From Candidatus Heimdallarchaeota archaeon (GTDB lineage Archaea > Asgardarchaeota > Heimdallarchaeia > JABLTI01): DNA of 64,000 nt. A program made the translations under genes and the position numbers. Under the pieces are notes generated by a model. It saw only the letters and a list, made by a program, of their open reading frames with translations, did no database searches and was not told where the DNA came from. Every line of letters starts with the position of its first letter. Position 1 is the first letter of the stretch. The stretch lies in contig JABCTZ010000007.1 of assembly GCA_018238155.1 (NCBI GenBank), positions 64,001 to 128,000 on the forward strand, in the 5' to 3' direction. Below are positions 23,762 through 40,932 of this stretch, piece after piece.

Positions 23762-24715
23762 TTGGTATTATCTATTGGATTTGAAATGATGTCCGCAATA
23801 AAAGGAGTAATCTCAAAATTTGAAACCAAAGTTTCTATTGCACTAATCGGTTTAACCAACTCTGGTAAGACATCATTAGTAAAAAGAATTATTCAATCAC
23901 AAGACTTTTTGCAAGGTTCGATTTCAGGTATTTCTGAACTAGAATATCATACTATCGATAATTTAACACTGATTACTTGGGATTTAAAGGACCATATACC
24001 TCAATATCAATCATTATGGAAACGCTCAATTTTGGGTGCAGATGCATTATTTTTCTTAGTAGATTCAACTGATTCATCCACTTTCGAAAAAAATAAACAA
24101 CTCATATTAGAGGTAGTCGAATTTAATTCTCCAATTAAAATGCTGGTACTAGCATCAAAATCTGACCTTGAGTCTTCTGTTCCTGTAAGTAGTTTATTAG
24201 AACAACTTGAGTTGATAAGCTTAGACCGACATAAATGTACCTGCGATCTGTTCAAATTTTCTTCCCAAACAGGTGAAGGAATATATGCCATTAGTGAATG
24301 GCTAAATAAGTCATTTTTCAAACAAAAAGAACGAGCAATAAACTATGTTGAAATTAAAGCTTCACTTATTCTAAATGAAGAAACTGATCAATTATTCGAA
24401 GCATTATTTGTAGATAATCCAAATATCTTGCTATTAACTGCCTTTAGAGAGCTAAGACGCAAAGCACGAGTTTTTTCTCGAACGATGCGCATTAATGTTG
24501 TAGGAGAAGAAGTGATTGAAATAGCAAATTACAAAGTTATTTTTGTGAAAGAAAAATCTTATGTTATTGCATTTTTAACAGGTTACAATGATCCAATTAA
24601 TAGAGCCATTGAAATTGCTAGAAATGTACTATACAATGCTACTTTAATGAATGACAAGCGCCTTAACTTAAGAAAACTAATTGGTGATCTTTATCCCTTA
24701 GACCTTCCGCGATAA
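23762..24715 (+). CDS. Arf/Rag-like small GTPase with degenerate G3/G4 and a C-terminal longin/roadblock-like domain
   Basis: GLTNSGKTS, TWDLKD, LWKRS..GADALFFLVDS, LASKSD, FSSQTGEGI...EWL; about 130-aa alpha/beta C-terminal domain. Confidence 0.8.
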   Translation: MVLSIGFEMMSAIKGVISKFETKVSIALIGLTNSGKTSLVKRIIQSQDFLQGSISGISELEYHTIDNLTLITWDLKDHIPQYQSLWKRSILGADALFFLVDSTDSSTFEKNKQLILEVVEFNSPIKMLVLASKSDLESSVPVSSLLEQLELISLDRHKCTCDLFKFSSQTGEGIYAISEWLNKSFFKQKERAINYVEIKASLILNEETDQLFEALFVDNPNILLLTAFRELRRKARVFSRTMRINVVGEEVIEIANYKVIFVKEKSYVIAFLTGYNDPINRAIEIARNVLYNATLMNDKRLNLRKLIGDLYPLDLPR

Positions 24716-24746: not shown

Positions 24747-24898
24747 TTTACATAGACTACATACTTTACATAGTCTACATACTTTACATAGTCTACATAC
24801 TTTACATAGACTACATACTTTACATAGACTACATATTTTACATAGACTACATATTTTACATAGACTACATACTTTACATAGATTACATATTTTACATA
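24747..24898. repeat. Tandem repeat, 18-bp unit TTTACATAG(A/T)CTACATA(C/T), about 8.4 copies
   Basis: Units start at 24747, 24765, 24783, 24801, 24819, 24837, 24855 and 24873, with a partial unit at 24891; TACATA recurs every 9 bp. Confidence 0.98.
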
Positions 24899-25096: not shown

Positions 25097-25426
25097 TTGG
25101 AAATGTTGCGTTTGCACATGACACTTAAAAAAGCAATTTCATTTATACCTCCCAAATACAAAGAGCAGGAGAAATGGCACTTAAAGATCATAACAGATCG
25201 ATGCAAAGGATGCTTATTTTGTATAAACTTTTGTCCAACGGAGATACTGGAAAGTTCTCCTGAAATTAATTCTAAAGGATATCATCCCCCAAGAATCAAG
25301 GATGATATGGATATGGACGATTGTGCAAAATGTGGTTTCTGTGAATTGATTTGCCCCGAATTCTCAATATTTCTTGAGAAAGAAGATACCTCAGGTGCAA
25401 AAAAACAATCGAAAATTCGGAAATAA
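25097..25426 (+). CDS. korD: 2-oxoacid:ferredoxin oxidoreductase delta subunit (2x[4Fe-4S])
   Basis: CKGCLFCINFCP and CAKCGFCELICP, with NSKGYHP; true start may be ATG 25118. Confidence 0.88.
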   Translation: MEMLRLHMTLKKAISFIPPKYKEQEKWHLKIITDRCKGCLFCINFCPTEILESSPEINSKGYHPPRIKDDMDMDDCAKCGFCELICPEFSIFLEKEDTSGAKKQSKIRK

Positions 25427-25454
25427 CTGAATGAAACTTACAAGGCGAATTTAT

Positions 25455-26621
25455 ATGAGTAAAAAAGCACCAATACAAGATGTCTTAACTGGAGAGCACT
25501 ATATTAGTGGTAATGAAGCTATTGCAGAAGGTTGCCTAGCAGCTGGCTGTAGATTCTTTGGCGGATACCCAATCACTCCTTCGAGCGAAGTCGCAGAGAG
25601 AATGGCTCATCGCTTACCGCAAGTGGGTGGAGTTTTCATCCAAATGGAAGACGAAATCGCTTCAATTGCAACTATTTTAGGCGCTTCTTGGGCTGGCAAG
25701 AAATCCATGACCGCAACTTCGGGTCCTGGTATTTCTTTGATGATGGAGAACATAGGTCTTGGAGCCATGACTGAAACTCCCTTTGTTATTATTAATGTTC
25801 AAAGGGCTGGACCTTCAACAGGTCTCCCAACACTTGTAGGACAAGGAGATGTAATGCAAGCACGATGGGGCTCTCATGGTGACTATGAAATAATTGCTCT
25901 TTCACCCAATTCTGTGCAAGAGGCATTCGATTTATCGATTGAAGCCTTTAATCTTGCAGAGGAATATCGAACACCAGTTATAATGTTAACTGATGAATCT
26001 ATATGTCACATGGTTGAAAAACTAATTATTCCATCCAAGTCTAAAATCAAAATAAAAAACAGAAAGAAACCAACAGGTTCAAAGAAGAACCATTTGACTT
26101 TTAAACCAGATGATGACATGATTCCTCCAATGGCTGCAGCCGGAGAAGGTTACAATGTTTTTGTTACAGGGTTAACTCATGATACAAAAGGATATCCAGT
26201 AATAACACCTGAAGCACAAGAAATCTTAGTAAAACGCTTGTGTGATAAAATATTGCTAAATGAAGAAAAAATCCGATTGACAGAAGAGCACTTGACAAAA
26301 GATGCAAAAATACTTGTTATCTCATATGGAATAACTGCTCGATCTGCAAAAGGTGCGGTCAATCTTGCTCGAAAGAAAGGAATCAAAGCTGGACTACTTC
26401 GCTTAATTACAATTTGGCCTTTCCCAACAAAGCTAATTGAAAAGCTTGCAGAAAAGGTTGATGCAATTATTGTTGCAGAGATTAACAATGGGCAAATAGT
26501 CAAAGAGGTTAGAGAAGTAACTCGAAAGAGTGTTCCTGTTGTTCTGTCTTCAAAGCTAGGTGGGATTGTTCATACTCCAAAAGAAATCCTAGCGAAAATA
26601 GAGGAGGTAAATAAGAAATGA
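25455..26621 (+). CDS. korA: 2-oxoacid (2-oxoglutarate-type):ferredoxin oxidoreductase alpha subunit
   Basis: GYPITPSSE, QMEDEIAS, TATSGPG, QRAGPSTGLPT. Confidence 0.92.
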   Translation: MSKKAPIQDVLTGEHYISGNEAIAEGCLAAGCRFFGGYPITPSSEVAERMAHRLPQVGGVFIQMEDEIASIATILGASWAGKKSMTATSGPGISLMMENIGLGAMTETPFVIINVQRAGPSTGLPTLVGQGDVMQARWGSHGDYEIIALSPNSVQEAFDLSIEAFNLAEEYRTPVIMLTDESICHMVEKLIIPSKSKIKIKNRKKPTGSKKNHLTFKPDDDMIPPMAAAGEGYNVFVTGLTHDTKGYPVITPEAQEILVKRLCDKILLNEEKIRLTEEHLTKDAKILVISYGITARSAKGAVNLARKKGIKAGLLRLITIWPFPTKLIEKLAEKVDAIIVAEINNGQIVKEVREVTRKSVPVVLSSKLGGIVHTPKEILAKIEEVNKK

Positions 26622-27484
26622 CCATCTCAGAACAAAACGTTGATGATACGATACTAGAAGCAAAGAAACATCCGATGGATTACTTATTACGTTGGGATCG
26701 ACTCCCACATGTATGGTGTAGCGGTTGTGGTTTAGGTAGTGTGCTTTCATGTTTCATCCATGCAATCGTCGAATCTGGAGTAGACACTAAGAAACTTGTT
26801 GTTGTATCCGGAATCGGATGTACTGGAAGAGCATCTGGTTACTTAGAACTGGATGTATTCCATACAACACATGGTAGAGCAATACCATTTGCTATCGGAT
26901 TAAAATTAGCAAATCCTGAGCTAAAAGTAGTTGTGTTTTCAGGAGATGGTGATTTGTTCGCAATTGGTGGAAATCATATAATCCATGCTGCAAGAAGAAA
27001 TGCTGACATTACTGTAATTTGTTCAAATAATTTCATTTACGGTATGACTGGTGGTCAATTAGCACCAACAACTCCGATGGACTCTTGGACATCAACTTCC
27101 CCATACGGAAATGTTGAACCAAATTTCAATCTCTGTCATTTAGTTGCATCTGCAGGAGCAGTATATGTTGCAAGATGGACCTCTCTAAACGCAAGAAGAT
27201 TACAACAATCAATGGTAGAAGCAATCAAAAAGAAAGGATTCTCCTTCATTGAAGTAATTCCCCCATGTCCAACAACTTTTGGTAGAAGAAATAAATTTGA
27301 GGAAGGAATTAAGATGTTGGAATTCTTCAGAGATAATACGATTATCAAACATGGTATTGACCCGGGTGATGCAGAAGTTCGATTGGGTGAAGAAGTCGTT
27401 GTCGGTAAGTTTGTCGATAAAGAAGACAAACCAACATTGAGTGACCATATAGAGCGAATTCAAAATATCGCTAAACGAAGGTGA
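26618..27484 (+). CDS. korB: 2-oxoacid:ferredoxin oxidoreductase beta subunit (TPP binding)
   Basis: WCSGCG, SGIGC, HTTHGRA, GDGD...NN.IYGMTGGQ. Confidence 0.92.
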   Translation: MTISEQNVDDTILEAKKHPMDYLLRWDRLPHVWCSGCGLGSVLSCFIHAIVESGVDTKKLVVVSGIGCTGRASGYLELDVFHTTHGRAIPFAIGLKLANPELKVVVFSGDGDLFAIGGNHIIHAARRNADITVICSNNFIYGMTGGQLAPTTPMDSWTSTSPYGNVEPNFNLCHLVASAGAVYVARWTSLNARRLQQSMVEAIKKKGFSFIEVIPPCPTTFGRRNKFEEGIKMLEFFRDNTIIKHGIDPGDAEVRLGEEVVVGKFVDKEDKPTLSDHIERIQNIAKRR

Positions 27485-27488
27485 AAAA

Positions 27489-28055
27489 ATGGCAAGAATT
27501 GAAATTCGTTTGTGTGGATTTGGTGGTCAGGGTATAGCACTTATGGGTAAAATACTCGGAGCTGCTGTATCTATCTTTGAGAAGAGAAAGTCAGTAACTA
27601 CACAGTCATATGGTCCCGAAAGCAGAGGTGGTGCCAGTGCTTGTAATATTGTTATATCCGAAGAGGAAGTAGATTTTCCTTATGTAATAAATCCGGATGC
27701 ATTCATTTGTATGAGTAAGGAAGCCTATACAACACATATTGATTCTCTCAAAGAAGGTGGATGGTTTTTTTATGAAGAAAACCTCGTACCCGTTGATGAT
27801 AGGATGAATAAAGCTGGTCGTATCTTTAGTATTCCTGCAACAGCAATTGCTGAAAAAGAACTTGGTAAAAAAATAGTTGCGAATATTGTTATGGTAGGGT
27901 TCTTTGCAGAACTTAACGAATATATTGATCAAAAAGCGATTTTAAAATCTGTTTTGAAATTCGTACCAGCTCGTTTCAGGGAATTGAACGAAAAAGCGTT
28001 CAATACTGGAAAGAACTATGCAAAAAAAGTGAAAAAACAGGAGGCTAAGAAATAA
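27489..28055 (+). CDS. korC: 2-oxoacid:ferredoxin oxidoreductase gamma subunit
   Basis: GFGGQG, QSYGPESRGG, ANIVMVG. Confidence 0.92.
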   Translation: MARIEIRLCGFGGQGIALMGKILGAAVSIFEKRKSVTTQSYGPESRGGASACNIVISEEEVDFPYVINPDAFICMSKEAYTTHIDSLKEGGWFFYEENLVPVDDRMNKAGRIFSIPATAIAEKELGKKIVANIVMVGFFAELNEYIDQKAILKSVLKFVPARFRELNEKAFNTGKNYAKKVKKQEAKK

Positions 28056-28056
28056 C

Positions 28057-30051
28057 TTGTCTCAAAAAAAGAAAACAAGAGAACCAGAAGAAGCTAAACG
28101 CTTAGGTGTTTTCGTTTGTCATTGTGGTAAGAATATCGCTGCTACAGTAGACGTCGAAAATATTGCTAAAGAAGTTACTAATCTTCATGGAGTAGTTCAT
28201 GCAACAGATAGCCATTATTTGTGCTCGGAGCCAGGTCAAAAAGCACTTCAAGATGATATTAAGTATCATCGATTAGATGGAATTATTTGTGCATGTTGCT
28301 CACCAACGTTACATGAAGAAACATTCAGAAAAGCTGCATCAGATGTTGGTGTCAATAAATATGAGGTTGAAATAGCAAATATTCGAGAAAAGTGCAGCTG
28401 GGTTCATTCAGATAGAGGAAAAGCAACTGAAAAAGCAATGAAAATCATTGAAACTAAAGTTGAAAAAGCTTTGTTGAATGAAGCATTAATACCAATTTCT
28501 GTAGACGTAAATCGTAATGCAATGGTGGTTGGTGCGGGAATAACTGGAATTCAAGCTGCTCTAGATTTAGCAAACTCTGGATATCATGTTTATTTAATTG
28601 AGCAATCACCAACGATTGGTGGACACATGGCCCAATTATCTTCAACCTTCCCAACACTAGATTGTTCTCAATGTATCCTATCACCAAAAATGTCTGAAAT
28701 AGCTCATCATGATAATGTTGAGCTAATAACAAACGCTAAACTAACTGGTGTTACAGGTTTCGTAGGGAACTTCAATGCTAAAGTAACCAAGAAACCGAAA
28801 TTTGTTATTGAAGAGCTTTGTAATTTGTGTGATGATTGTGTCACAGTCTGCCCTGTAATAGTTCCAAATGACTTTGAAGGTGGACTTGGTCCAAGAAAAG
28901 CAATCTACTTACCTTTTCCACAAGCAGTTCCAAGTGCTTATATACTTGATATTGAGAATTGTTTGGGAATTCACCCACTGGTTTGTTCAAAATGTCGTGA
29001 TGCTTGCGAACAAAAAGCTATCGATTATGATATGAAAGAAGAAATCGTAGAATTAAATGTTGGCGCAATAGTAATTGCTACAGGATATGATCTCTACGAT
29101 ATCTCAAAGATTTCGGAATATGATTTTGGTCCAGAAGTTGATGTCATAGATGGATTACAATTCGAGCGTTTGTTAAGCAGTGCTGGTCCAACTGGCGGTG
29201 AAATTTTAAGACCATCTGATCACAAGAAACCAGAAACCGTTGTTTTTGTTCAATGTGTTGGTAGTAGAGATCCAGAACATCATATGGCTTATTGTAGTAA
29301 AATCTGTTGTACATACACAGGAAAACATGCTTTGCTACTTAAAGATCAAGAACCAGATACAGAAGTATATGTCTTTTATATTGATATACGAGCTGCTGGT
29401 CGAGGATATGAAGAGTTCATCGACAGAGCCCAAGAAATGGGTGTAATTTACATTAGAGGAAAACCATCAAAAATCTTCAGAGATGGAGATAAAACGATGA
29501 TTTGGGCTGCAAATACACTTACAGGTGAAAGATTAGAAGTTGAAGCCGATTTGGTTGTTTTAGCTCCTGCTATGATTCCTTCATTTGATACTAAAGTGCT
29601 TTCAGGAGTAACAAAGTGTAGCCTTGATGAATATGGATTTTTCAAGGAAGCACATGTAAAATTGAAACCAGTCGAAAGTTTGGTTCAAGGGCTATTTGTA
29701 GCTGGTGCCGCACTTTCACCAAAGGATATTCCTGAGTGTGTTTCTCAAGGTAGTGCTGCAGCATCAAAAGCAATAGCATTATTATCAAAACCACAACTTT
29801 TCCATGACCCCATAGTTGCTATTGTAAATGAACAAGCATGTAGTGGTTGTAAAGTATGTCAAAGCCTCTGCCCCTATGGTGCAATATCATTTGACTCAGT
29901 AAAGAATATTTCAGTTGTGAAAGAAATTCTCTGCCAAGGTTGTGGCACTTGTGCAAGCGCTTGCCCAAGCCAAGCATTGACTTTGAAGAATCAAACTGAT
30001 AAGCAAATCTCGAATATGATTCGAATTGCTTTGAAAACGGAGGCTAAATAA
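28057..30051 (+). CDS. hdrA: Heterodisulfide reductase subunit A (bifurcating flavoprotein)
   Basis: GVFVCHCG.NIA, NIRE.CSWVH, GAGITG, TFPTLDC, QCVGSRD, CSKICC, C-terminal ferredoxin motifs. Confidence 0.96.
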   Translation: MSQKKKTREPEEAKRLGVFVCHCGKNIAATVDVENIAKEVTNLHGVVHATDSHYLCSEPGQKALQDDIKYHRLDGIICACCSPTLHEETFRKAASDVGVNKYEVEIANIREKCSWVHSDRGKATEKAMKIIETKVEKALLNEALIPISVDVNRNAMVVGAGITGIQAALDLANSGYHVYLIEQSPTIGGHMAQLSSTFPTLDCSQCILSPKMSEIAHHDNVELITNAKLTGVTGFVGNFNAKVTKKPKFVIEELCNLCDDCVTVCPVIVPNDFEGGLGPRKAIYLPFPQAVPSAYILDIENCLGIHPLVCSKCRDACEQKAIDYDMKEEIVELNVGAIVIATGYDLYDISKISEYDFGPEVDVIDGLQFERLLSSAGPTGGEILRPSDHKKPETVVFVQCVGSRDPEHHMAYCSKICCTYTGKHALLLKDQEPDTEVYVFYIDIRAAGRGYEEFIDRAQEMGVIYIRGKPSKIFRDGDKTMIWAANTLTGERLEVEADLVVLAPAMIPSFDTKVLSGVTKCSLDEYGFFKEAHVKLKPVESLVQGLFVAGAALSPKDIPECVSQGSAAASKAIALLSKPQLFHDPIVAIVNEQACSGCKVCQSLCPYGAISFDSVKNISVVKEILCQGCGTCASACPSQALTLKNQTDKQISNMIRIALKTEAK

Positions 30052-30062
30052 GAAATAGGTGT

Positions 30063-30518
30063 GTGAGTACAATGTCTGAATTGTTGAACCCCGAACCCAA
30101 AGTAATTGCATTTCTCTGCAAATGGTGTAGTAGTAATGCAGCTGATCTAGCTGGTGTTTCTCGAATGAAATACCCCGCAAATATCATCGCTATTGAAACC
30201 CCTTGTTCAGGTCGAGTTGATCCTACCTATATCTTTGATGCATTATCAAATGGAGCAGATGGTGTAATTGTTGCAGGTTGCCACCCAGGTGAATGTCACT
30301 ATATCACTGGAAACTACAAAACGTTGAAGAGAATGGTTTTGGTCAAAGAACTTGCTGAACAAATGGGCATAGAAGATGAACGAATACATCTCGAGTGGAT
30401 TTCTTCTTCAGAAGCTAAGAAATTCGTCAAGACAATGACTGAGTTTATTGAAAAACTCAAACATCTCCCCCCAAATCCCTTAAGAAATAATAGGGTAGCT
30501 CAGGAGGCCAAACATTAA
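30063..30518 (+). CDS. mvhD: Methyl-viologen-reducing hydrogenase delta subunit
   Basis: FLCKWC...AADLAG, PCSGRVDP, GADGV.VAGCHPGECHY..GN. Confidence 0.95.
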   Translation: MSTMSELLNPEPKVIAFLCKWCSSNAADLAGVSRMKYPANIIAIETPCSGRVDPTYIFDALSNGADGVIVAGCHPGECHYITGNYKTLKRMVLVKELAEQMGIEDERIHLEWISSSEAKKFVKTMTEFIEKLKHLPPNPLRNNRVAQEAKH

Positions 30519-31541
30519 ATGAAGAAGATAAAATTAGCTGTTGCAGCAGGTTCATTTTGTGGTGGTTGTGATATGTCTATCATTAATCTTAATGAGATGC
30601 TAATTCCAATCGAAGAAGCTATTGAACTTGTATTTTGGCAAGTTGCTTCTGATTTTAAATTCAAAGATGTGGAAGCTCTCGAAGATAATGAAATTGACAT
30701 TTGTTTATATCATGGACCTATCAGAACATCAGAACACGCTGAAATTGCCCATTTGTTTAGAAAGAAGAGTAAAGTAATGATTGCTTATGGGTCTTGCTCT
30801 TGTTTTGGTGGAATACCACAACTTGCTAATCCATATAACGCACAAACCGTTTTAGAGGCAGTTTATACTAATGGATATAATATTGATGAATCTGGTCCGA
30901 ATCAAAATTTTATGCGACCTAAATCTGAATACAAAAAAGGGCGAGCAATGACTTTACCAAAACTATTGGATTCTTGTTTACCACTTACATCTGAAGTAGA
31001 TGTTAATTATTTTGTTCCTGGTTGCCCTCCCGTCCCAGCTCAATGGGAAATTCTTGTTTCCGTTATAACTAATTTTATCAAGACGGGAGAATTACCACCA
31101 AAGGGAACAGTAGTTGCAGGTGATACAGCCCTTTGCGAAGAGTGTGGTCGTGAAAAACCCGAAGAAATCGTCATAAATCGTTTTAGACGACCTTTTGAGG
31201 TTGATCCTGATCCTGAAAAATGTTTGTTATCACAAGGGATTATTTGTATGGGTCCTGCCACGCGTTCAGGCTGTGGTGGACAGTGTACTTTAGGAGCTAA
31301 TATGCCATGCAGAGGTTGCTTTGGCCCTGCTCCAGATGTGCAAGATCCTGGATTAAAAATGCTTTCTGCAATTGCTTCAATAGGTGGAGCAAAAATCGAA
31401 GCAGAACTTGGTCCCGAAGGTCTGAAGAAATTGATGGAATCAATACCTGATCCGTTTGGTACTTTTTATCGTTTTTCCACACCGGAGTACATAATTAAGA
31501 CGAAAAAGAAAGTTGCTGAAGAGGAGAGCTCTAAGAAGTAA
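30519..31541 (+). CDS. mvhG: [NiFe] group 3c hydrogenase small subunit
   Basis: CGGC, GSCSCFGGI, PGCPP, CLLSQG..CMGPATRSGC, PCRGCFGP. Confidence 0.93.
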   Translation: MKKIKLAVAAGSFCGGCDMSIINLNEMLIPIEEAIELVFWQVASDFKFKDVEALEDNEIDICLYHGPIRTSEHAEIAHLFRKKSKVMIAYGSCSCFGGIPQLANPYNAQTVLEAVYTNGYNIDESGPNQNFMRPKSEYKKGRAMTLPKLLDSCLPLTSEVDVNYFVPGCPPVPAQWEILVSVITNFIKTGELPPKGTVVAGDTALCEECGREKPEEIVINRFRRPFEVDPDPEKCLLSQGIICMGPATRSGCGGQCTLGANMPCRGCFGPAPDVQDPGLKMLSAIASIGGAKIEAELGPEGLKKLMESIPDPFGTFYRFSTPEYIIKTKKKVAEEESSKK

Positions 31542-31556
31542 ATAGAGGGAACTATC

Positions 31557-33014
31557 ATGACAAAAAAGACAATTTATATTAATCCCGTCTCTCGATTAGA
31601 AGGAGAAGCAAAAATATCAATATTTCTCGATGATAAGGGAAATGCTGTAGATGCTTATTTCCAAGTTCAAGAATTGAGGGGTTTTGAAAAGTTCTGTGAA
31701 GGAAGACCAGCAGAAGAAATGCCTCGAATTGTGAGTAGGATATGTGGTGTATGCCCTTGGCCTCATCATATAGCCAGTGCAAAAGCACTTGATAAAATCT
31801 TTCATGTTGAACCTAAGAAAACAGGTGAAGATTTACGAAGGATGGGTGCGACAGCTCATGTTTGGTATTCTCATTCAGCTCACTTCTTTGCTCTCGCCGG
31901 ACCCGATTTTGTTATGGGAATAGATGCTCCTCCTGTTGATAGGAATCTTCTTGGAATGCTTCGAGCTGATAAAGACTTAACAGTTGAGGTTCTAAAACAA
32001 AGAAATAATTCTCATAGAATTCAACAAATTCTTGGAGGAAAATCCGTTCATCCTGTAACTGCTATTCCTGGTGGAGTATCGAAAGGACTTAAACCAGAAG
32101 AACGAGATGAAATTCTGAAACGAGCTAAAGAAATGGTTAAATTCAGTCAGTGGAGTTTAGAGTGGTTCGAAGATTTGATTAAAGAGAAGAAACTTCTGAA
32201 GTTAATCACAGGTGATATCTATAAAAACGAATTTAATTACATGGCTTCTGTGGATGAGAATGGTCTCATTGATTATTACAGTAGCGAAGCAGTAATAATT
32301 AATCCTGAGGGTAAAGAAATTGATCGTTTCTCACCCGATAAATATTATGAACATATCACTGAACATTGCGAACCCTGGTGCACCGCAAAACAAACCTTCA
32401 TTCAAAAAATAGGTTGGAAAGGTTTTGAAACAGGTGCTGAAAGTGGTGTATACAGTGTTGGTCCACTTGCAAGATTGAACATTGGAAAATATTCTACTCC
32501 TCTTGCTCAAAAAGCACAAAAACGACTTTTTGAAGTAGTGCCAAAACCATGCCACTTACAATTAGTTTCTAATTGGGCTCGATTAGTTGAGATGCTTAAT
32601 GCTGCAGAAATCATAGTAGATTTAGCTAAAAAACCCTACATAACCAATAGCGAATACCGTGTTATTCCTAAAGAAATGGGCGGAAGAGGTATTGGTATGG
32701 TAGAAGCACCAAGAGGTACTCTTATTCACGACTATACCGCAGACGAAAATGGTATGATCACGAAAGTTAACCTAATTGTTGCAACGACACACAATATTGC
32801 TCCAATCAATATTAGTGTTAGAGAAGCAGCAAAACATGTTATCAAAAATGGCAACTACACAGATCAAGCTGTCTTGAATATGGTAGAAGTTGCATTTAGA
32901 TCATATGATCCTTGTTTAGCTTGTTCAACACATACTCCTACGGGAAGTATGCCTCTTGAAGTAAAGATATACGATAAGGATCGAAAGCTCAAGGATGTGC
33001 TAAAAAACCAATGA
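31557..33014 (+). CDS. mvhA: [NiFe] group 3c hydrogenase large subunit
   Basis: RLEGE, RGFEKF, RICGVC (L1), EAPRGTLIH, DPCLACSTH (L2) plus cleavable C-terminal tail. Confidence 0.96.
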   Translation: MTKKTIYINPVSRLEGEAKISIFLDDKGNAVDAYFQVQELRGFEKFCEGRPAEEMPRIVSRICGVCPWPHHIASAKALDKIFHVEPKKTGEDLRRMGATAHVWYSHSAHFFALAGPDFVMGIDAPPVDRNLLGMLRADKDLTVEVLKQRNNSHRIQQILGGKSVHPVTAIPGGVSKGLKPEERDEILKRAKEMVKFSQWSLEWFEDLIKEKKLLKLITGDIYKNEFNYMASVDENGLIDYYSSEAVIINPEGKEIDRFSPDKYYEHITEHCEPWCTAKQTFIQKIGWKGFETGAESGVYSVGPLARLNIGKYSTPLAQKAQKRLFEVVPKPCHLQLVSNWARLVEMLNAAEIIVDLAKKPYITNSEYRVIPKEMGGRGIGMVEAPRGTLIHDYTADENGMITKVNLIVATTHNIAPINISVREAAKHVIKNGNYTDQAVLNMVEVAFRSYDPCLACSTHTPTGSMPLEVKIYDKDRKLKDVLKNQ

Positions 33015-33526
33015 ATGAAATTTCTTCTCTGAACTATCAAAACAATGGAAAAGCTAAGACACTAATAATTGGTGTTGGCAATCCTATTCTATCTGATGAT
33101 GGTGTAGGGATACATATTGTTAGATTACTCGAGAAGAAATATTCCAACACTCCTGAATTCGAGTTTGATGAAGTATCTATTGGTGGCTTAAGTCTTGTAG
33201 AACGATTTATCGGCTATGATACAGTCATTATGATTGATGGCTTAGCATTACAAGGTGGAACTCCTGGTGATGTTTACAAGTTTTCAATTGATGATTTTAG
33301 AACAACTATACATACGTATTGTGCTCACGACTGCAATTTAGCTACTGCTTATGATCTTCTTAAAACCGAACTAGGAGAGGAAAAATTACCTAAAGAAGTT
33401 ACAATTATTGGTATTGAAGTTGAAAATATCAGTGATTTTAGTGAATCACTTTCTGATAAAGTTCTGAAAGCGGTTCCAGAAGCAATATCAATAATTGAAA
33501 AAGAACTTGAAAAAATCTTGAATTAG
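33011..33526 (+). CDS. Hydrogenase maturation protease
   Basis: IGVGNPILSDDGVG, IDG, AHD. Confidence 0.93.
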   Translation: MNEISSLNYQNNGKAKTLIIGVGNPILSDDGVGIHIVRLLEKKYSNTPEFEFDEVSIGGLSLVERFIGYDTVIMIDGLALQGGTPGDVYKFSIDDFRTTIHTYCAHDCNLATAYDLLKTELGEEKLPKEVTIIGIEVENISDFSESLSDKVLKAVPEAISIIEKELEKILN

Positions 33527-33574
33527 AAATATGTTATGATTTAATTAGTTGAGATATCAATGGAGTGAAATTAA

Positions 33575-33982
33575 TTGTCAATGGTAAAACTAACCAAAAC
33601 TGAGAAACGCATTGCATTTCGTCAGAAGGTCTTAGATCTCGCCGGTGATAATATTATGCGATGTTATCAATGTGGTGAATGTTCGGGTGGTTGTCCTGAA
33701 TCTGCTGTAATGGACCTTCTACCAAATCAAATAATTCATAAGATTCAACTTGGCGATGAATCCGTTTTGGACACTAACACCTTCTGGGTTTGCTCATCAT
33801 GCTTAGTATGTAGTGCAAGATGTCCAAAAGGAATTGATATTGCTAAAGTGATGGAATCTTTACGAGAAATATCACTGAGAGCAAAGAAGAGCTATGTTAC
33901 ACTTGAAGCTCTTACAAGAGAAGAGCTAGAAGAATTACCTCAAATAGCTCTAATTAGTAGCTTTAAGAAACAAACATCATAA
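33575..33982 (+). CDS. hdrC: Heterodisulfide reductase subunit C
   Basis: CYQCGECSGGCP and WVCSSCLVCSARCP. Confidence 0.92.
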   Translation: MSMVKLTKTEKRIAFRQKVLDLAGDNIMRCYQCGECSGGCPESAVMDLLPNQIIHKIQLGDESVLDTNTFWVCSSCLVCSARCPKGIDIAKVMESLREISLRAKKSYVTLEALTREELEELPQIALISSFKKQTS

Positions 33983-33999
33983 TCGGAGCGTAAACAAAG

Positions 34000-34920
34000 A
34001 TGACAGAAAAAATAGCCTACTACCCCGGTTGTACAGCAAAATCATACGCAAAATACATGGATTTAACTGCTCGAGAAGTTATGAAGAAATTCGATATTGA
34101 ATTAGTAGAATTGTCAAGATGGAATTGTTGTGGAACTTTCTTTGGTTTAGCTGAAGATAATCTCACAAGCCAATTAGCTCCTATGCGAAATATGATTCGT
34201 ACACGTGAAGATGGTTTTACAGATCTCACAACTACTTGTTCTATGTGCTATAATACTCTAAAACGAGCAAATCTTCTCATTCAGAATGACGAAGAAAAGG
34301 CTTCTCGTTTAAACGCTTTCATGTATGAAGAAGAAGACTATGAAGGTGGGGTGCGTGTATGGCATTTACTTGAACTTCTGCTAGAAAAAGTCGATTTTGC
34401 TGATATAGCAAAGAAAATTGTTAATCCACTTAAAGGATTGAAAATTGCGCCATATTATGGATGCACTTTGCTTCGACCTGAAGAAATAACAATTGACAAG
34501 AATCCTGAAAAACCAACCATTCTCTCTGATTTGATTTTTGCTCTTGGAGCAGAAGCAATTGAGGATCCTTATATGACTGAATGTTGTGGTTCTTATCTTA
34601 CAGTGAAAGATAAGCATTTAGTAGCTGACAGAACAAATAGAATAGTTGGTTCGGTTGCTCGAAGAGATGCAGATCTAATAGTGGTCTCTTGTCCATTATG
34701 TCAATTTAACTTGGATCGACGCCAAAAGGAAGCTCGAGAATTGAATTCAGCACTACCTGAAATTCCTGTAGTGTACTTTACTCAATTAATGGCTTTAGCT
34801 TTTGGTGCAGATGTAAAAGAATTGGGTTTTCATGAACACTATGTTGACCCTACTCCTGTTTTAAGGAAACGGAAGGTATTGGGAGCCAAAGTAAAAGTTC
34901 CCATAAAAGTAAAGAAATGA
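34000..34920 (+). CDS. hdrB: Heterodisulfide reductase subunit B (two CCG domains)
   Basis: YYPGC...WNCCG...CSMC and YYGC...ECCG...CPLCQ.NLD. Confidence 0.93.
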   Translation: MTEKIAYYPGCTAKSYAKYMDLTAREVMKKFDIELVELSRWNCCGTFFGLAEDNLTSQLAPMRNMIRTREDGFTDLTTTCSMCYNTLKRANLLIQNDEEKASRLNAFMYEEEDYEGGVRVWHLLELLLEKVDFADIAKKIVNPLKGLKIAPYYGCTLLRPEEITIDKNPEKPTILSDLIFALGAEAIEDPYMTECCGSYLTVKDKHLVADRTNRIVGSVARRDADLIVVSCPLCQFNLDRRQKEARELNSALPEIPVVYFTQLMALAFGADVKELGFHEHYVDPTPVLRKRKVLGAKVKVPIKVKK

Positions 34921-34921
34921 G

Positions 34922-35623
34922 GTGGAAAAAACGACCACTGAAGTGACTTATGAGAAAGTAAAAATAATTGTTGCTAATACTGAATTTGAAGTTCCATCTA
35001 ACCTAACGATAATGAAAGCCCTTGAATATCTCGGATGGAGATTGGATCGTGGTGTTGGTTGTCGTGGAGGTTTCTGTGGAGCCTGTAGTACAATATATCG
35101 TTTGAAAGGAGATCATAAACTCTATACAGGTTTATCCTGTGCAACGAAAGTTGAAGATGGTATGATCATCGCTCAAATACCAATTAGTCCCGCGAACAAG
35201 AAGCTCTATGACTTAGAGTCATTAAAAGCAGTTCCAAATACGATGCTTGAATTTTATCCCGAAATTGCTAGATGTATCTCTTGCAATACGTGCTCAAAAG
35301 CTTGCCCAATGGATATAGAAGTAATGGATTATGTGCAAGCAGCATTAAGAGGTGATATTGCTCTGGCAGCAACTTTGAGTTTTGACTGTATTATGTGCGG
35401 ACTTTGTGCTACTAGATGTCCTGCTGAAATCACTCAATTTAATGTTGGTGTTTTAGCAAGAAGACTATATGGTCGTTATATTCAACCAGAGTATAAACAA
35501 ATGGCCAAAAGAGTCAAAGAAGTTGAGAAAGGTAAATATGATGCTGAATTAGAAAAGCTCATGAAAACCGATAAAAAAGGTCTCGTGAAACTCTATGCAG
35601 AGCGTGTGCGAGAAAAAGCCTGA
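34922..35623 (+). CDS. SdhB/FrdB/TfrB-like iron-sulfur subunit ([2Fe-2S] plus 2x[4Fe-4S])
   Basis: GCRGGFCGAC...LSC; CISCNTCSKACP; CIMCGLCATRCP. Confidence 0.85.
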   Translation: MEKTTTEVTYEKVKIIVANTEFEVPSNLTIMKALEYLGWRLDRGVGCRGGFCGACSTIYRLKGDHKLYTGLSCATKVEDGMIIAQIPISPANKKLYDLESLKAVPNTMLEFYPEIARCISCNTCSKACPMDIEVMDYVQAALRGDIALAATLSFDCIMCGLCATRCPAEITQFNVGVLARRLYGRYIQPEYKQMAKRVKEVEKGKYDAELEKLMKTDKKGLVKLYAERVREKA

Positions 35624-35644
35624 GGAACTGAGGTGTAAAAGAAC

Positions 35645-37297
35645 ATGGTAAATGATCCTTATCCAGACTATATGCGAGAATCAATCAAAAACGTTGAAAA
35701 AACTCGTGAAAAACGATTGAAAGTAACTATGGACCATTGTTCACCAGATGAAATTGATGATGTGTTGAATAACTTCCATCCTGATTTCATTAAGGAACAG
35801 AAAGCAAGTCTACGTTTTGGTGTTTCAAAAGGTGAAGTAGTTCCTCTTGAAGTTTCAAAGTTAATTGAAACAAAATCAGTACTAGACCCCAAGAAAGTAG
35901 ATCTCAATAAAATTGATTTTAATGTTGATATGTTAATCATTGGTGGTGGTGGTGCTGGTGCAAATGCTGCACTCTGGGCAATAAAAAATGGTGTGAAAGC
36001 AGAAAACATTCTAATTGCTACAAAATTAAGAATGGGTGATTCAAACACTACCATGGCTCAAGGAGGAATACAAGCAGCAGTAAGAGAAGTTGATAGTCCC
36101 GCAATTCACTATTTAGATGCTATTGGTGGTGGGCATTATGAAAATGATCCCCCATTAACTAGAAGATTAGTACGTGATGCTCCACTATTACTTCAATGGT
36201 ATGAAAAACTTGGTATGATGTTTGATAAATTCGAAGATGGTACCATGGATGCCATACATGGTGGAGGAACTTCTAGAAAGAGAATGCATTTTGCCAAAGA
36301 CTTCACTGGTGCCGAAATCATGAAGACTTTGAGAGACGAAGTTTTTAATCATGAAATTCCAATCATTGAATTCTGTCCTGCAATAGAGCTCATTAAAGAT
36401 GATAAAGGTCAAGTCGCTGGTGCTGTTTTACTTAATCTTGACAGTAAGGAATATATCACCGTAAAAGCTAAAGCAACAGTTGTAACAACTGGAGGTTTTG
36501 GTCGATTACATATTCAAGGCTTCCCAACATCAAACCATTATGGCGCAACTTTTGACGGTTGTGTAATGGGCTATCGTGCTGGTGCTCCACTGAAAATGAT
36601 GAAATCAGTTCAATATCATCCAACAGGTGCTGCTTTTCCAGAACAGATTGTTGGTTTATTGGTAACTGAGAAAGTTCGAGGAAAAGGTGCCCAAGTGCTA
36701 AATAAAAATGGTGAACAATTCTGTTTCCCACTTGAGACACGAGATGTTGAAGCAAGTTTGATCATTAGAGAATGCAGTAAAAGAAATAATGGGCTAGTAA
36801 CTCCCTCAGGACAACCTGGTCTATGGTTAGATTCTCCATTAATTGATCAAATTCATGGAGAAGGCACTATCGCAAAGAATTTCGCCGCTATGGTTAGACA
36901 ATTCGAACGTTTTGGTGTAAACATGATTGAAGATCCTATCTTGATCTATCCTACACTTCATTATCAAAATGGTGGCTTAGCAATTGATGAGAACACTGCA
37001 ACAGCAGTGAAAAACCTCTATGCTGCTGGTGAAGTATGTGGTGGTACACATGGAAGTAATCGTTTAATGGGAAATAGTTTGCTAGAAATTAGTGTATTTG
37101 GAAGAGCTGCAGGTATCGCAGCCGCTAAGAATATACCAAAGGTTTCTCTTGGCAAATTAACTCTTGATCATATTACAAAATACAATGCTCTTTGTGATGA
37201 ACACAAAGTAAAGAATCCGCCCTCGCCAATTCTCTTCCCAGATTATTCTCAAGATAAACATAAAGATAGAGTAATTCCAACTAATTTCTTAGTATAA
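35645..37297 (+). CDS. Soluble fumarate reductase/SdhA (TfrA-like) flavoprotein
   Basis: GGGGAG, MAQGGI, QYHPT, TEKVRG, TRDV, LHYQNGG, AAGE, HGSNRLMGNSL; catalytic His/Arg set kept, covalent-FAD His absent. Confidence 0.9.
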   Translation: MVNDPYPDYMRESIKNVEKTREKRLKVTMDHCSPDEIDDVLNNFHPDFIKEQKASLRFGVSKGEVVPLEVSKLIETKSVLDPKKVDLNKIDFNVDMLIIGGGGAGANAALWAIKNGVKAENILIATKLRMGDSNTTMAQGGIQAAVREVDSPAIHYLDAIGGGHYENDPPLTRRLVRDAPLLLQWYEKLGMMFDKFEDGTMDAIHGGGTSRKRMHFAKDFTGAEIMKTLRDEVFNHEIPIIEFCPAIELIKDDKGQVAGAVLLNLDSKEYITVKAKATVVTTGGFGRLHIQGFPTSNHYGATFDGCVMGYRAGAPLKMMKSVQYHPTGAAFPEQIVGLLVTEKVRGKGAQVLNKNGEQFCFPLETRDVEASLIIRECSKRNNGLVTPSGQPGLWLDSPLIDQIHGEGTIAKNFAAMVRQFERFGVNMIEDPILIYPTLHYQNGGLAIDENTATAVKNLYAAGEVCGGTHGSNRLMGNSLLEISVFGRAAGIAAAKNIPKVSLGKLTLDHITKYNALCDEHKVKNPPSPILFPDYSQDKHKDRVIPTNFLV

Positions 37298-37458: not shown

Positions 37459-37647
37459 GTGAATGAAATCAGAAAAAAGAAAAAAACTAGGAAAGTAACA
37501 ATATCAAGGCACAATCCAAGGGTGAATAGAGTTTCAATGGATATTCATATGAGACAAGGGGACAATCCAATTATTGGAACTATATCTGAACCAATTATTA
37601 TGGAAGTACCAATCAAAGAAAAGAAAAAGGATAAGAAAAAGAAATAA
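37459..37647 (+). CDS. Small basic hypothetical protein
   Basis: 62 aa, Lys-rich ends, GAGG overlapping the GTG start. Confidence 0.45.
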   Translation: MNEIRKKKKTRKVTISRHNPRVNRVSMDIHMRQGDNPIIGTISEPIIMEVPIKEKKKDKKKK

Positions 37648-37754
37648 CCAGAAAAGTTATTTTTTATTTCCTTTCTAATATAAAATCTTTTTATTTAGTA
37701 TTAGGTATCAGATATTTGCTTTTGTTTAGCACAGTTGTTTTTGGACGTCCCGAA

Positions 37755-38975
37755 ATGAGATTTGATACTATTATTATAGGTGCTGGAATTATTGGTACTA
37801 GCACTGCTTATTACTTACAGAAATATTCTCCAAAACAAAAAATACTTCTCATTGACAAGAACTCAAAAATTGCTGGTGGGAATACTTCAAGAAGTGCAGC
37901 ACTTTACCGGAACCTATTTTCATCTAGGACAAGCCAAGTACTTTCAGCCAGTTCAATAGGCTTTTATGAAACAATTGCCGATAAAATCGGTCTTAAAAAT
38001 CTTGGTTATCTTTGGATGTTCTCACAAGACGATTGGAAAAAATCTCAGAAAGGATTACAAAATCTAAATGATCAATCAGAAACCTTCGAAATACTTTCAC
38101 CGAAGGAATTTCCTAAGAATCTTCAACTGAATTTTAATTCCTCAGATGATTTCCCTGCTATTCATCAAGCACTTTATGGGCATCGATGTGGTTCTTTATC
38201 AGCAATAAATCTTGCCAAATATTATGCAAAGCAATTTGAAGATTTAGGTGGAAAAATAGCTTTGGAAAAAAACATCCAGAAATTATCTCTATCTGAAGAA
38301 GAGCGACACTTCCCTCCATGGTCTGGAATAAAACTCCTTTCAATAATGGATCAAAACAGGGATGAGTATCTAGCTGATGATTTCCTTTTCACTACTGGTG
38401 CATGGACGAATGACCTTTTAGCACCAATTGGTATTGCTTCCCAAATATATCCTAAGAAACGTCAACTTTATACTCTTAAATTAGATTCTACACAAATTGT
38501 TTCAAATCCAAAAGAAAGCACACCAATCCTTATACTTCCAACAGGAGGAGTGTATGTTAAACCTATTTTACAAAATGGAATCATTATGGTCGGTTGTGCA
38601 AATGAATTAGGAAATCCATATCAAATGAATATATATCCACCTGCCGCAGAACAAGAATACTTTGAATTCGCTATTAAACCTATTTTGCAATATTACTTTC
38701 CTAAATTAAAAGAATTCAAATTATTCTCAAAATGGGCTGGATATTACGCTTATTACTGGCCCGATAAAAATCCAGTTATTGAAAAAGTGTCCAATATTCA
38801 ATGGATTAGTGGCACATCTGGATCTGGAATAATGAAAGCGGATGCGATAGGAAGGATTTCTGCTGCAAAAGTATTAGGTCTTGAAAAAACGGAACTATTT
38901 GATGGGACAAAATTCAAAATAGACAATTTATCGCTAAAGAAAAGAGCAGTTGATGCGGAAGAACTAATAATTTAA
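37755..38975 (+). CDS. FAD-dependent oxidoreductase (DAO / sarcosine oxidase beta family)
   Basis: IIIGAGIIGTSTAY, GNTSRSAA, GAWT, WAGYY...PD.NPVI, GSGIMK. Confidence 0.9.
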   Translation: MRFDTIIIGAGIIGTSTAYYLQKYSPKQKILLIDKNSKIAGGNTSRSAALYRNLFSSRTSQVLSASSIGFYETIADKIGLKNLGYLWMFSQDDWKKSQKGLQNLNDQSETFEILSPKEFPKNLQLNFNSSDDFPAIHQALYGHRCGSLSAINLAKYYAKQFEDLGGKIALEKNIQKLSLSEEERHFPPWSGIKLLSIMDQNRDEYLADDFLFTTGAWTNDLLAPIGIASQIYPKKRQLYTLKLDSTQIVSNPKESTPILILPTGGVYVKPILQNGIIMVGCANELGNPYQMNIYPPAAEQEYFEFAIKPILQYYFPKLKEFKLFSKWAGYYAYYWPDKNPVIEKVSNIQWISGTSGSGIMKADAIGRISAAKVLGLEKTELFDGTKFKIDNLSLKKRAVDAEELII

Positions 38976-39657: not shown

Positions 39658-40932
39658 GTGAATTGCTTGTCTATTTATGATGACATGCTGAGTGAAGAAA
39701 AATACTTGAAAAAATATAAACTCCATAGAAACCCTTTCGATAAAATATCTGCTGAATCAATGACTGCTGCAGAAATTGTTAAAATGCATGTTGTTACTGC
39801 TGCAGATAAGAAGATAGCTTCTAATTTATCTACTATTCTTAATGGTGGTTCTGCAACAGTTGCTCTTATTGGTGAATATGGATCTGGAAAATCTATTCGA
39901 GCAAGTTCTATCATTGAAACATTGAAGCGAAAAAAAGCATTAGTCTTTTATACAAAATTACCCGGAGGAACACCTGGTATTGTAACATATGCGCTTTTTG
40001 AAAGCGTTTGCATTCCACTAATGGACAACGAAGATGTTCCAGAAGAATTACGAAATTATGCTGAAAAACTTTGGGAACATTATCGTGGCATTGCTTCTCT
40101 TCCAGATGCGAAATTCAAACCTTTTCAAGCAGGAAAAGATTTAGCTAAACTCTTCAAAAAAATCAGTGCAAATAATTTACTTTCAGGATTGATAATAGAT
40201 GAATTCGAGGAAATAATTGAGGCTAGTATACAACGTGAGATTAGGAAAACATTCGAAATTTTGCGTGAATATTTGAGTCATGCAGTTGGTATTCCTGGAC
40301 ATATCACCGTTATTTGTTCTACACCAAATGCTTGGGCTTCTTTGAAGGAGATTCATCCTGCTGTAGCTACTCGAGTCCATGTTGAAATTGAGTTTAAACC
40401 CGTTTCAGATAAAATTGCAATTAAAATCATACAAAAAAGATTAGCTGCATTTCGTCCCGAAGACCCTAATAATTTATCACCATTTGATGAATCCATTATT
40501 TCAAAAGTAAACAAGGAGTATGCTACAGGAAATCCACGAATGTTGTTACTAGTCTTAAGATCTATATTAGATGTTACTGCTCAAAATAATCTTAAGAAAG
40601 TAGATCTTCCATCTGTTGAAGGTGGTGTAGAATTCGCTCGAGAGAAATTGAAAGATGCTCAAAGCGAACGAATCAAACAAATTCTAACACCTAAGATGAG
40701 AGATATTTTAGAATGTATAATCAGTGAAAAAGGAGGAGGTCCTGTTGTTGGAACTTCTCTTTCAGATGAACTTGGGATGGACCAAGGAAACCTCTCACGG
40801 TATCTAAACCAAATGGCTGCACTCAATTTTCTGAATAAACATCGAGATGGCAGAATTGTGTCCTTCGAGATAAAACCCGAGCTCAAATTAATCTTTGCGG
40901 AAGAATTAGGATTAATCGAAGATGAAAAATAA
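39658..40932 (+). CDS. AAA+ ATPase (Orc1/Cdc6- or STAND-like) with C-terminal winged HTH
   Basis: LxRNPF, GEYGSGKS, LIIDEFE, ATR (R-finger), GNPR (sensor II), LSDELGMDQGNLSRYLNQM HTH. Confidence 0.75.
   Translation: MNCLSIYDDMLSEEKYLKKYKLHRNPFDKISAESMTAAEIVKMHVVTAADKKIASNLSTILNGGSATVALIGEYGSGKSIRASSIIETLKRKKALVFYTKLPGGTPGIVTYALFESVCIPLMDNEDVPEELRNYAEKLWEHYRGIASLPDAKFKPFQAGKDLAKLFKKISANNLLSGLIIDEFEEIIEASIQREIRKTFEILREYLSHAVGIPGHITVICSTPNAWASLKEIHPAVATRVHVEIEFKPVSDKIAIKIIQKRLAAFRPEDPNNLSPFDESIISKVNKEYATGNPRMLLLVLRSILDVTAQNNLKKVDLPSVEGGVEFAREKLKDAQSERIKQILTPKMRDILECIISEKGGGPVVGTSLSDELGMDQGNLSRYLNQMAALNFLNKHRDGRIVSFEIKPELKLIFAEELGLIEDEK

Follow-up and report, generated by a model that had tools for sequence, protein, structure and literature searches.

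Organization of the operon

A stretch of 64,000 nucleotides from Candidatus Heimdallarchaeota archaeon (assembly GCA_018238155.1, contig JABCTZ010000007.1, positions 64,001 to 128,000), hereafter called the window, has a G+C content of about 33% and carries at its positions 25097-37297 a putative operon of thirteen open reading frames (ORFs). This operon brings together a 2-oxoacid:ferredoxin oxidoreductase (Kor), a heterodisulfide reductase (HdrABC), a NiFe hydrogenase with its adaptor (MvhADG) and a fumarate reductase-like pair, designated here FrdB' and FrdA'. All genes lie on the plus strand in the order korD, korA, korB, korC, hdrA, mvhD, mvhG, mvhA, hydrogenase maturation protease, hdrC, hdrB, frdB', frdA'. 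Judged by sequence, the cluster appears to be an H2-driven variant of an already proposed Hdr-coupled fumarate reductase; its parts are ordinary, and the cluster itself is real and conserved.

An earlier note, made from the DNA letters without database searches, had described thirteen co-oriented genes with gaps under about 50 bp or overlaps and had named each of them. The ORF list places all thirteen at the same coordinates, with successive gaps of 4, -4, 4, 1, 11, 0, 15, -4, 48, 17, 1 and 21 bp, and Pfam and NCBIfam agree with the gene names. The distance of 1 bp between hdrB and frdB' holds only if the GTG at 34922 is taken as the frdB' start; in relatives these genes overlap or are separated by 0-10 bp. 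A transmembrane-type hydrophobic segment was found in none of the 13 proteins, which bears out the statement that the operon has no membrane-anchor subunit.

An AT-rich spacer of 380 bp lies 5' of korD, and a T-rich tract lies 3' of the frdA' stop. Scanning for sigma-70 promoters and hairpin terminators, a procedure ill-suited to archaea, gave no excess over shuffled sequences, and three metatranscriptome runs contained next to none of the sequence words of the operon. The identical 13-gene order recurs in metagenome-assembled genomes (MAGs) of the Heimdall group at identities down to about 75%, and Thermoplasmata have a 12-gene version, so this order is not due to chance. The nearest public relative of the host MAG shares 96% amino-acid identity with it over FrdA'. 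Coordinates and domain matches are collected in Table 1.

Table 1. Genes of the operon, neighboring features of the window and related genes on other contigs (bit scores are given with model cut-offs where available; aa, amino acids).
Feature	Position	Strand	Assignment
korD	25097..25426	+	delta subunit, 2x[4Fe-4S] ferredoxin-like; Fer4 domains; best NCBIfam OGOR_delta 52.5 bits, cut-off 125
korA	25431..26621	+	alpha subunit, KOR/OGOR-type 2-oxoacid:ferredoxin oxidoreductase; POR_N + PFOR_II
korB	26618..27484	+	beta subunit, binding thiamine pyrophosphate (TPP); TPP_enzyme_C; 2-oxoglutarate ferredoxin oxidoreductase beta 278.6 bits, cut-off 364
korC	27489..28055	+	gamma subunit; PF01558; NF006323 200.9 bits, cut-off 235
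hdrA	28057..30051	+	bifurcating flavoprotein; HdrA2 model 823 bits
mvhD	30063..30518	+	donor module-HdrA adaptor; PF02662 FlpD 177 bits
mvhG	30519..31541	+	small subunit, group 3c-type NiFe hydrogenase; Oxidored_q6; VhuG 182.9 bits, below cut-off
mvhA	31557..33014	+	NiFe hydrogenase large subunit; NiFeSe_Hases; VhuA model 338.8 bits
hydrogenase maturation endopeptidase	33011..33526	+	HycI match; TIGR00072 108.7 bits, above cut-off
hdrC	33575..33982	+	2x[4Fe-4S] connector; Fer4_17 + HdrC models
hdrB	34000..34920	+	CCG domain x2 (noncubane cluster sites); HdrB model 164 bits, SdhE model 150 bits
frdB'	34922..35623	+	SdhB-like Fe-S subunit, 233 residues; Fer2 + 4Fe-4S dicluster; dhsB model 36 bits, cut-off 88
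frdA'	35645..37297	+	SdhA/FrdA-like flavoprotein, 550 aa; FAD_binding_2 residues 95-479
Arf-family small GTPase	23762-24715		317 aa, C-terminal extension
tandem array	24747-24898		18-bp unit, 8.4 copies, 95% matches
Lys-rich ORF (possible)	37459-37647		62 aa
DAO-family FAD oxidoreductase	37716-38975		only weakly similar to oxidases of sarcosine, glycine and L-2-hydroxyglutarate
P-loop ATPase	39658-40932		424 aa; weak NACHT and BrxC/D-like matches
canonical SdhA/SdhB, NadB, second korDABC	contig C19 (L007:5008-8628) and contig C15 (L006:7044-8642; L008:5859-8521)

Components and cofactor motifs

Cofactor motifs are kept throughout the hydrogenase and Hdr parts. MvhA has the nickel-iron ligand motifs RICGVC..H and DPCLACSTH together with the C-terminal tail for protease processing, and is apparently intact. 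HdrA aligns over residues 7-661 with methanogen HdrA (8rvu_a, 659 bits). Among 22 orthologues all eight Cys of HdrC are invariant, as are ten Cys of HdrB (C11, 43, 44, 80, 83 and C155, 195, 196, 231, 234), which form two CX31-39CCX35-36CXXC motifs; HdrB matches the solved chain 9sfi_C with 141 bits.

The Kor genes encode the complete domain set of a KOR-clade enzyme with its four subunits (delta, alpha, beta and gamma). KorA scores 567 bits with NF006412, above the cut-off of 411, and less than 95 bits with all PorA, VorA and IOR models, and its best PDB matches are 1yd7 and 8ys5, the latter a 2-oxoglutarate synthase. Models specific for 2-oxoglutarate are the next-best matches, all below their cut-offs (alpha 405 of 579 bits, beta 279 of 364, delta 52 of 125). 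2-Oxoglutarate and succinyl-CoA are the putative substrate pair of Kor. The operon KorA is 58-65% identical to cluster-linked KorA proteins of Thermoplasmata and Acetothermia, versus 52% to the paralogue in its own genome.

The twelve invariant Cys of FrdB' are C47, 52, 55 and 73, assigned to a [2Fe-2S] cluster, and C118, 121, 124, 128 and C156, 159, 162, 166, which make up two [4Fe-4S] motifs. The second of these motifs has four Cys like the first, hence FrdB' is without the [3Fe-4S] site typical of quinone-linked enzymes. Domain search found no CCG domain on FrdB'; the CCG domains are on the separate HdrB.

FrdA' begins with an N-terminal extension of 92 residues and ends about 70 residues past the NRL motif, the usual C-terminal helical domain being missing. 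Its invariant dicarboxylate site H325, T341/E342, R366, H439 and R473 aligns with E. coli FrdA His232, Thr244/Glu245, Arg287, His355 and Arg390. At the position of the His that links flavin adenine dinucleotide (FAD) stands Asn134, and Asn is found here throughout the FrdA' family, by which the FAD of FrdA' is judged to be non-covalently bound. The AlphaFold2 model built on a 66-row alignment has a mean predicted local distance difference test score (pLDDT) of 95.2 and has E. coli FrdA (1kf6_A) as its best fold match, with a TM score of 0.70 over about 450 columns; an initial model from a 12-row alignment (pLDDT 58.8) was discarded. FrdA' reaches no NCBIfam cut-off: it scores 324 of 718 bits with TfrA (NF004900, matched at positions 7-411 of 546 only), 267 of 567 with SdhA/FrdA and 253 of 452.75 with NadB (TIGR00551).

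Two other identities were considered and rejected. Besides its low score, L-aspartate oxidase NadB is not consistent with the Gly that FrdA' has in place of the Glu of the LEGGHS motif found in the genome's own NadB. In E. coli NadB the aspartate-binding Glu is Glu121. A type-E succinate:quinone reductase (SdhABE), to which HdrB shows resemblance through the SdhE model, was set aside as the main reading, since a membrane-associating subunit is missing and the genes are constantly linked to hdrA and mvhD.

As a separate observation, a metagenomic protein of 727 aa (P0127) is a natural fusion of a FrdB'-like domain (2Fe-2S plus 4Fe-4S dicluster) with a FrdA'-like flavoprotein that includes the N-terminal extension.

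Distribution of the FrdA' family and its gene neighborhoods

The FrdA' family is distinct and highly conserved, and occurs in at least 590 species genomes; two scans each list roughly 600 as a lower bound. Identity among homologues that share the extension is 53-61% across archaeal and bacterial phyla. Its archaeal carriers are Thermoplasmata, Bathyarchaeia, Thor-, Heimdall- and Borrarchaeota, Theionarchaea, Methanofastidiosia and Culexarchaeia, and the bacterial ones are Chloroflexota, Bacillota, Cloacimonadota, WOR-3, Thermodesulfobacteriota, Acetothermia and others.

Neighbors were counted in 33 loci with at least 8 kb of upstream and at least 6 kb of downstream flank. Near frdA' we detected frdB' in 31 of the 33, hdrC in 29, hdrB and hdrA in 27 each, mvhD in 23, kor in 18 and mvhGA in 14. 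The survey of gene order across archaea and bacteria proposed in the earlier note thus finds frdB'A' close to hdrC, hdrB and hdrA in most loci. The arrangement itself is variable. For example, the Heimdall group and some Thermoplasmata have kor upstream; in Chloroflexota and other Thermoplasmata it is found downstream. The genes hdrCB adjoin frdB' in some loci and lie several kb off in others. One Bathyarchaeia locus reads kor-hdrA-mvhD-hdrCB-frdB'A' with no hydrogenase, and one Methanofastidiosia locus consists of hdrC-hdrB-frdB'-frdA' alone.

The electron donor module differs between lineages. In a second Heimdall lineage (L023) and in Sporomusa rhizae (L091), flxC-flxB-flxA stands in place of mvhGA, and well-flanked loci of gut Clostridia have the order hdrB-hdrC-hdrA-flxD-flxC-flxB-flxA-frdB'-frdA' in 35 of 35 cases. 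The operon has no FlxABC module, and its position is occupied by mvhG, mvhA and the protease gene. Hdr and FrdB'A' are accordingly the constant core of these loci and Kor is a frequent, optional rider. The mid-potential donor module is exchangeable (H2 or NAD(P)H), because flxCBA and mvhGA replace each other while Hdr and Frd stay constant.

A different, more elaborate Hdr wiring was seen in six Anaerolineae/Chloroflexota loci (L041, L044, L056, L066, L077 and L089), where the HdrC-like match is inside a protein of 376-396 aa and several HdrA-like genes flank frdB'A'.

Predicted connection between HdrB and FrdB'

If Hdr and FrdB'A' belong to one system, then we can ask: How would electrons pass from one to the other? 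The NCBIfam model of TfrB, the iron-sulfur subunit of methanogen thiol:fumarate reductase, is covered piecewise by FrdB' (positions 17-85), HdrC (131-222) and HdrB (262-478), for which reason FrdB' and HdrB look like TfrB split over two chains.

Complex prediction for HdrC, HdrB and FrdB', a check of the kind named in the earlier note, placed FrdB' on HdrB with a score of 0.88, the best of three controls having 0.00. Among solved complexes 58 of 80 reach this mark, and among mismatched pairs 2 of 110, a calibration that is only rough here given the custom alignments and three chains. Contacts agreed between runs by at least 92%, and partner pLDDT was at least 76. The predicted interface involves HdrB residues 9-16, 40-45 and 56-63, around C11 and C43/C44 of the first CCG motif, and FrdB' residues 104-122, 126, 135-145 and 167, around the [4Fe-4S] motifs; the C-terminal tail of HdrC takes part as well. 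Recall of a known complex by the predictor is unlikely, since sequence search found no solved structure that pairs an HdrB homologue with an SdhB-like chain. The prediction supports a direct HdrB-to-FrdB' electron wire, although it does not show one.

Genome context

By tblastn the genes hdrA, mvhD, mvhG, hdrC and hdrB are single-copy in the genome, with no hdrA paralogue; the three remaining CCG proteins (383-439 aa) are of another type, and HdrB is the only stand-alone HdrB. Searches of the genome, which is 90.7% complete so that absences are not proven, gave no match to mcrA (PF02249), comA (PF02679) or a citrate synthase/ATP-citrate lyase domain. A SucC-like gene (355.9 bits, just below cut-off), a class I fumarase gene, and adjacent aconitase and isocitrate dehydrogenase genes are present. 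The earlier note had asked whether coenzyme M (CoM) and coenzyme B (CoB) synthesis, succinyl-CoA synthetase and fumarase could be recognized: the latter two are represented, and comA was not found.

FrdA' is a third, distinct paralogue beside a canonical SdhA, which keeps the FAD-linking His, and a true NadB (692 bits, contig C15). The genome also has the SdhB partner of canonical SdhA and a second, stand-alone korDABC cluster of the KOR type. After the canonical SdhA/SdhB pair, in place of SdhCD, lies a gene for a YdjM-family membrane protein.

Methanogens run an incomplete reductive branch from oxaloacetate to 2-oxoglutarate in which Tfr and Kor are the two redox steps. The gene content described above fits such a branch and not an autotrophic reverse tricarboxylic acid (TCA) cycle. 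Thus, of the "reductive TCA" role first assigned to the operon, the part from fumarate to 2-oxoglutarate is supported, and the full reverse cycle was rejected because no citrate-forming or -cleaving domain was found in the 90.7% complete genome.

Proposed mechanism and energetics

We consider that the operon probably encodes a soluble, electron-bifurcating H2:fumarate/ferredoxin system with a dedicated ferredoxin consumer and a direct route from HdrB to FrdB'A'. MvhAG would oxidize H2 and pass the electrons through MvhD to the FAD of HdrA, where each pair would be split. The low-potential electron would go to ferredoxin, or straight to the ferredoxin-like subunit KorD, and Kor would spend the reduced ferredoxin on carboxylating succinyl-CoA reductively to 2-oxoglutarate. 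The high-potential electron would travel through HdrC to the noncubane clusters of HdrB, then through the three Fe-S clusters of FrdB' to the non-covalent FAD of FrdA' with no thiol/disulfide carrier, and FrdA' would reduce fumarate to succinate. In sum, H2 could drive both redox reactions on the reductive route that leads from fumarate to 2-oxoglutarate.

With potentials of -414 mV for H+/H2, about -500 mV for ferredoxin and +33 mV for fumarate/succinate (PMC5861303), the reaction 2 H2 + fumarate + oxidized ferredoxin -> succinate + reduced ferredoxin is calculated to yield about -70 kJ under standard conditions. This driving force is about twice that calculated for CoM-S-S-CoB, the heterodisulfide of methanogens, and the reaction stays exergonic down to about 0.1 Pa H2; its feasibility at such low H2 is due to fumarate being a much stronger acceptor than the heterodisulfide.

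The central proposal of the earlier note, H2-driven bifurcation with fumarate as the high-potential and Kor as the ferredoxin sink, is in this way supported by conserved neighborhoods, the donor swap, the predicted contact of HdrB with FrdB', the single hdrABC set and the failure to find mcrA or comA. Several points weigh against it. No NCBIfam equivalog cut-off is reached by FrdA', FrdB', KorB, KorC, KorD, HdrB or MvhA. The complex score is a model confidence and not a measurement. Kor is missing in roughly half of the loci and in almost every Clostridia locus, so that its coupling is optional, and neither redox step strictly needs the operon, as the genome has canonical SdhAB and the second KOR-type cluster. 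Both CCG motifs are retained in HdrB, which could therefore still act on a disulfide.

It is possible, though we think it doubtful, that Kor, HdrABC, MvhADG and FrdB'A' form one soluble supercomplex without free ferredoxin or thiol carrier, in which H2 electrons are channeled into the CO2-fixing carboxylation and into fumarate. Such an assembly would parallel the methanogen megacomplex of Hdr with formylmethanofuran dehydrogenase.

Alternative explanations

The conserved CCG motifs, which in methanogens form the disulfide-reducing site, also allow a scheme with a diffusible carrier. Here Mvh-HdrABC would reduce a small-molecule or protein disulfide, and HdrCB-FrdB'A' would act as a split thiol:fumarate reductase that re-oxidizes the thiols, with fumarate again the sink. 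Four-gene modules hdrC-hdrB-frdB'-frdA' without adjacent hdrA, as in Methanofastidiosia, Theionarchaea and Ammonifex, would suit this scheme, and methanogen TfrAB works in such a way (Heim et al. 1998, to the extent that it is cited in PMC8163825). However, there is a single HdrB and a single HdrC, and one site would have to reduce and re-oxidize the carrier with no gain over a direct wire. FrdB' is predicted to dock on HdrB. It lacks a CCG domain itself, which together with the single HdrB would make the carrier redundant, and comA and mcrA were not found in the 90.7% complete genome. We regard the diffusible carrier as unlikely. Similarly poor are the prospects of another reading, in which the enzymes are separate and co-regulated for redox balance, or FrdA' reduces another unsaturated acid or oxidizes another dicarboxylate. 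It draws on the sub-cut-off scores of FrdA' and FrdB', on a flavoprotein superfamily that holds urocanate reductase and other reductases (6t85) and on the Kor linkage not being universal. It is improbable given that the whole set of fumarate-site residues is invariant, that the frdB'-hdrB-hdrC-hdrA linkage survives many rearrangements in two domains of life, and that one electron path is indicated both by the domain architecture of TfrB and by the contact predicted between HdrB and FrdB'.

The direction of flow is a separate question. The earlier note had also imagined the system in reverse, with reduced ferredoxin from the oxidation of 2-oxoacids by Kor and electrons from succinate meeting at HdrA, so that a syntrophic partner would be supplied with H2. 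Syntrophic H2 production, with clusters of the Mvh-Hdr type, is widely inferred for Asgard archaea (10.1101/2025.02.26.640444), and H2-coupled succinate oxidation above 65 °C was weighed by the authors who described Culexarchaeia (PMC9723716). From the standard potentials, the reverse reaction is nevertheless calculated to cost about +70 kJ in the standard state, and at 1 Pa H2 the cost would still be about +13 kJ. In the Sdh/Frd family a non-covalent flavin accompanies fumarate reduction, and Asn replaces the FAD-linking His across the FrdA' family, whereas the canonical SdhA that keeps this His is available for succinate oxidation. The reverse operation therefore appears very improbable, and the forward, H2-consuming direction is favored by its energetics and by the family-wide loss of the covalent flavin link.

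Comparison with known systems

The closest published system is NADH-driven. Rubin-Blum et al. (2019) reported that tubeworm symbionts and Thioflavicoccus mobilis have a single cluster made up of frdB, frdA, hdrC, hdrB, korDABC, hdrA and flxDCBA, and proposed a complex that bifurcates NADH electrons to 2-oxoglutarate:ferredoxin oxidoreductase (OGOR) and fumarate reductase (PMC6315080); co-expression of this cluster was shown by Mitchell et al. (2024) (PMC11636981), and a 2026 survey restates the idea. Compared through the published gene table, the cluster has the same parts as our operon apart from the donor, and the same bifurcation logic. The donor there is NADH through FlxABC, and here H2 through MvhGA with its maturation protease; the host there is an autotrophic bacterium with ATP-citrate lyase, and here no citrate-cleaving or -forming enzyme was found. 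The "succinate operon" of Pseudoclostridium thermosuccinogenes (fumarate hydratase, Flx-Hdr and fumarate reductase) is co-regulated, and its fumarate reductase was proposed to be bifurcating in a 2019 preprint. Likened by description, it shares with our operon an Hdr-linked, anchor-less fumarate reductase proposed to couple to ferredoxin reduction, in a host that excretes succinate, and it differs in being NADH-driven and in having no Kor in the operon; its locus is not among the 80 loci of our Clostridia-centered scan. Typical of Hdr-linked soluble fumarate reductase clusters (Flx-Hdr-Frd, with or without Kor) are frdB'A' beside hdrC, hdrB, hdrA and an MvhD/FlxD adaptor, a layout seen in the window, in 27-31 of the 33 diverse loci and in 35 of 35 Clostridia loci. 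The NADH-driven Hdr-Frd model is thus in print together with co-expression data (PMC6315080, PMC11636981, PMC7282089), and a role of Hdr in a non-methanogen, to which the earlier note pointed, is not new in view of the known Flx-Hdr systems. No publication setting out the archaeal, H2-driven version came up in literature searches.

All six subunit types of methanogen MvhAGD-HdrABC (PDB 5odc, 8rvu, 9sfi) are matched in the operon with intact cofactor motifs. The methanogen acceptor is CoM-S-S-CoB; in the operon, FrdB'A' follows hdrB instead, in a genome where mcrA and comA were not found. Methanogen TfrAB (Methanothermobacter) serves as a soluble fumarate reductase in the reductive branch leading to 2-oxoglutarate, as proposed here for FrdB'A'. 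The domain order of TfrB (2Fe-2S, 2x4Fe-4S, 2xCCG) is reproduced by FrdB' plus HdrB, but TfrB is one fused chain with CoM-SH and CoB-SH as donors, and FrdA' differs from TfrA by its sub-cut-off score, its lack of the C-terminal domain and its N-terminal extension. With classical complex II (SdhAB/FrdAB) FrdA' shares the dicarboxylate-site residues; the covalent-FAD His, the C-terminal domain, the [3Fe-4S] motif in subunit B and the membrane anchor are absent here.

The fumarate reductase purified from Hydrogenobacter thermophilus is soluble, depends on NADH and has five subunits (Miura et al. 2008, as far as it is reported in PMC13147460). Within the limits of that secondary account, the enzyme resembles the proposed one, by description, in being soluble and multi-subunit, in its place in the reductive TCA cycle and in an A subunit homologous to FrdA. 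Its subunits C-E are possibly Hdr-like and GltD-like.

Implications

In papers on MAGs of Asgard and other non-methanogenic archaea, MvhADG-HdrABC and "TfrA/SdhA" appear as separate entries with the acceptor left open, and in one of them the disulfide acceptor was called unknown (PMC9723716). The gene linkage described here offers an answer for non-methanogenic archaea, namely fumarate, reached through a split TfrB-like wire. If this is true, fumarate reduction pays for low-potential ferredoxin made from H2 (from NADH in the Flx version), and the family spread implies cytoplasmic energy coupling of this kind from sediment archaea to gut Clostridia. It would also bear on whether archaea of the Heimdall group are H2 consumers or producers, a point in models of eukaryote origin. 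Should the supercomplex exist, fumarate would be the long-sought Hdr acceptor in Asgard archaea, Bathyarchaeia, Thermoplasmata and many anaerobic bacteria, calculated to be workable at H2 pressures down to those given above.

Neighboring genes

Directly upstream of the operon spacer lies the gene of an Arf-family small GTPase, of which tblastn found at least eight paralogues in the genome; many such paralogues are typical of Asgard archaea. In the spacer, about 200 bp upstream of korD, there is a tandem array with the unit TTTACATAGACTACATAC; it may serve to bind a regulator or be a hypervariable repeat.

Downstream of frdA', the DAO-family oxidoreductase gene is kept in the four closest Heimdall relatives and not in other phyla, and the protein is possibly tied to 2-oxoglutarate metabolism. 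The spacer between frdA' and this gene is 418 bp here versus about 100 bp in the relative L001. The possible Lys-rich ORF lies inside the enlarged spacer, and the closest relative, with its 100-bp spacer, has no room for it. Further downstream, the P-loop ATPase is possibly a defence or signalling NTPase.

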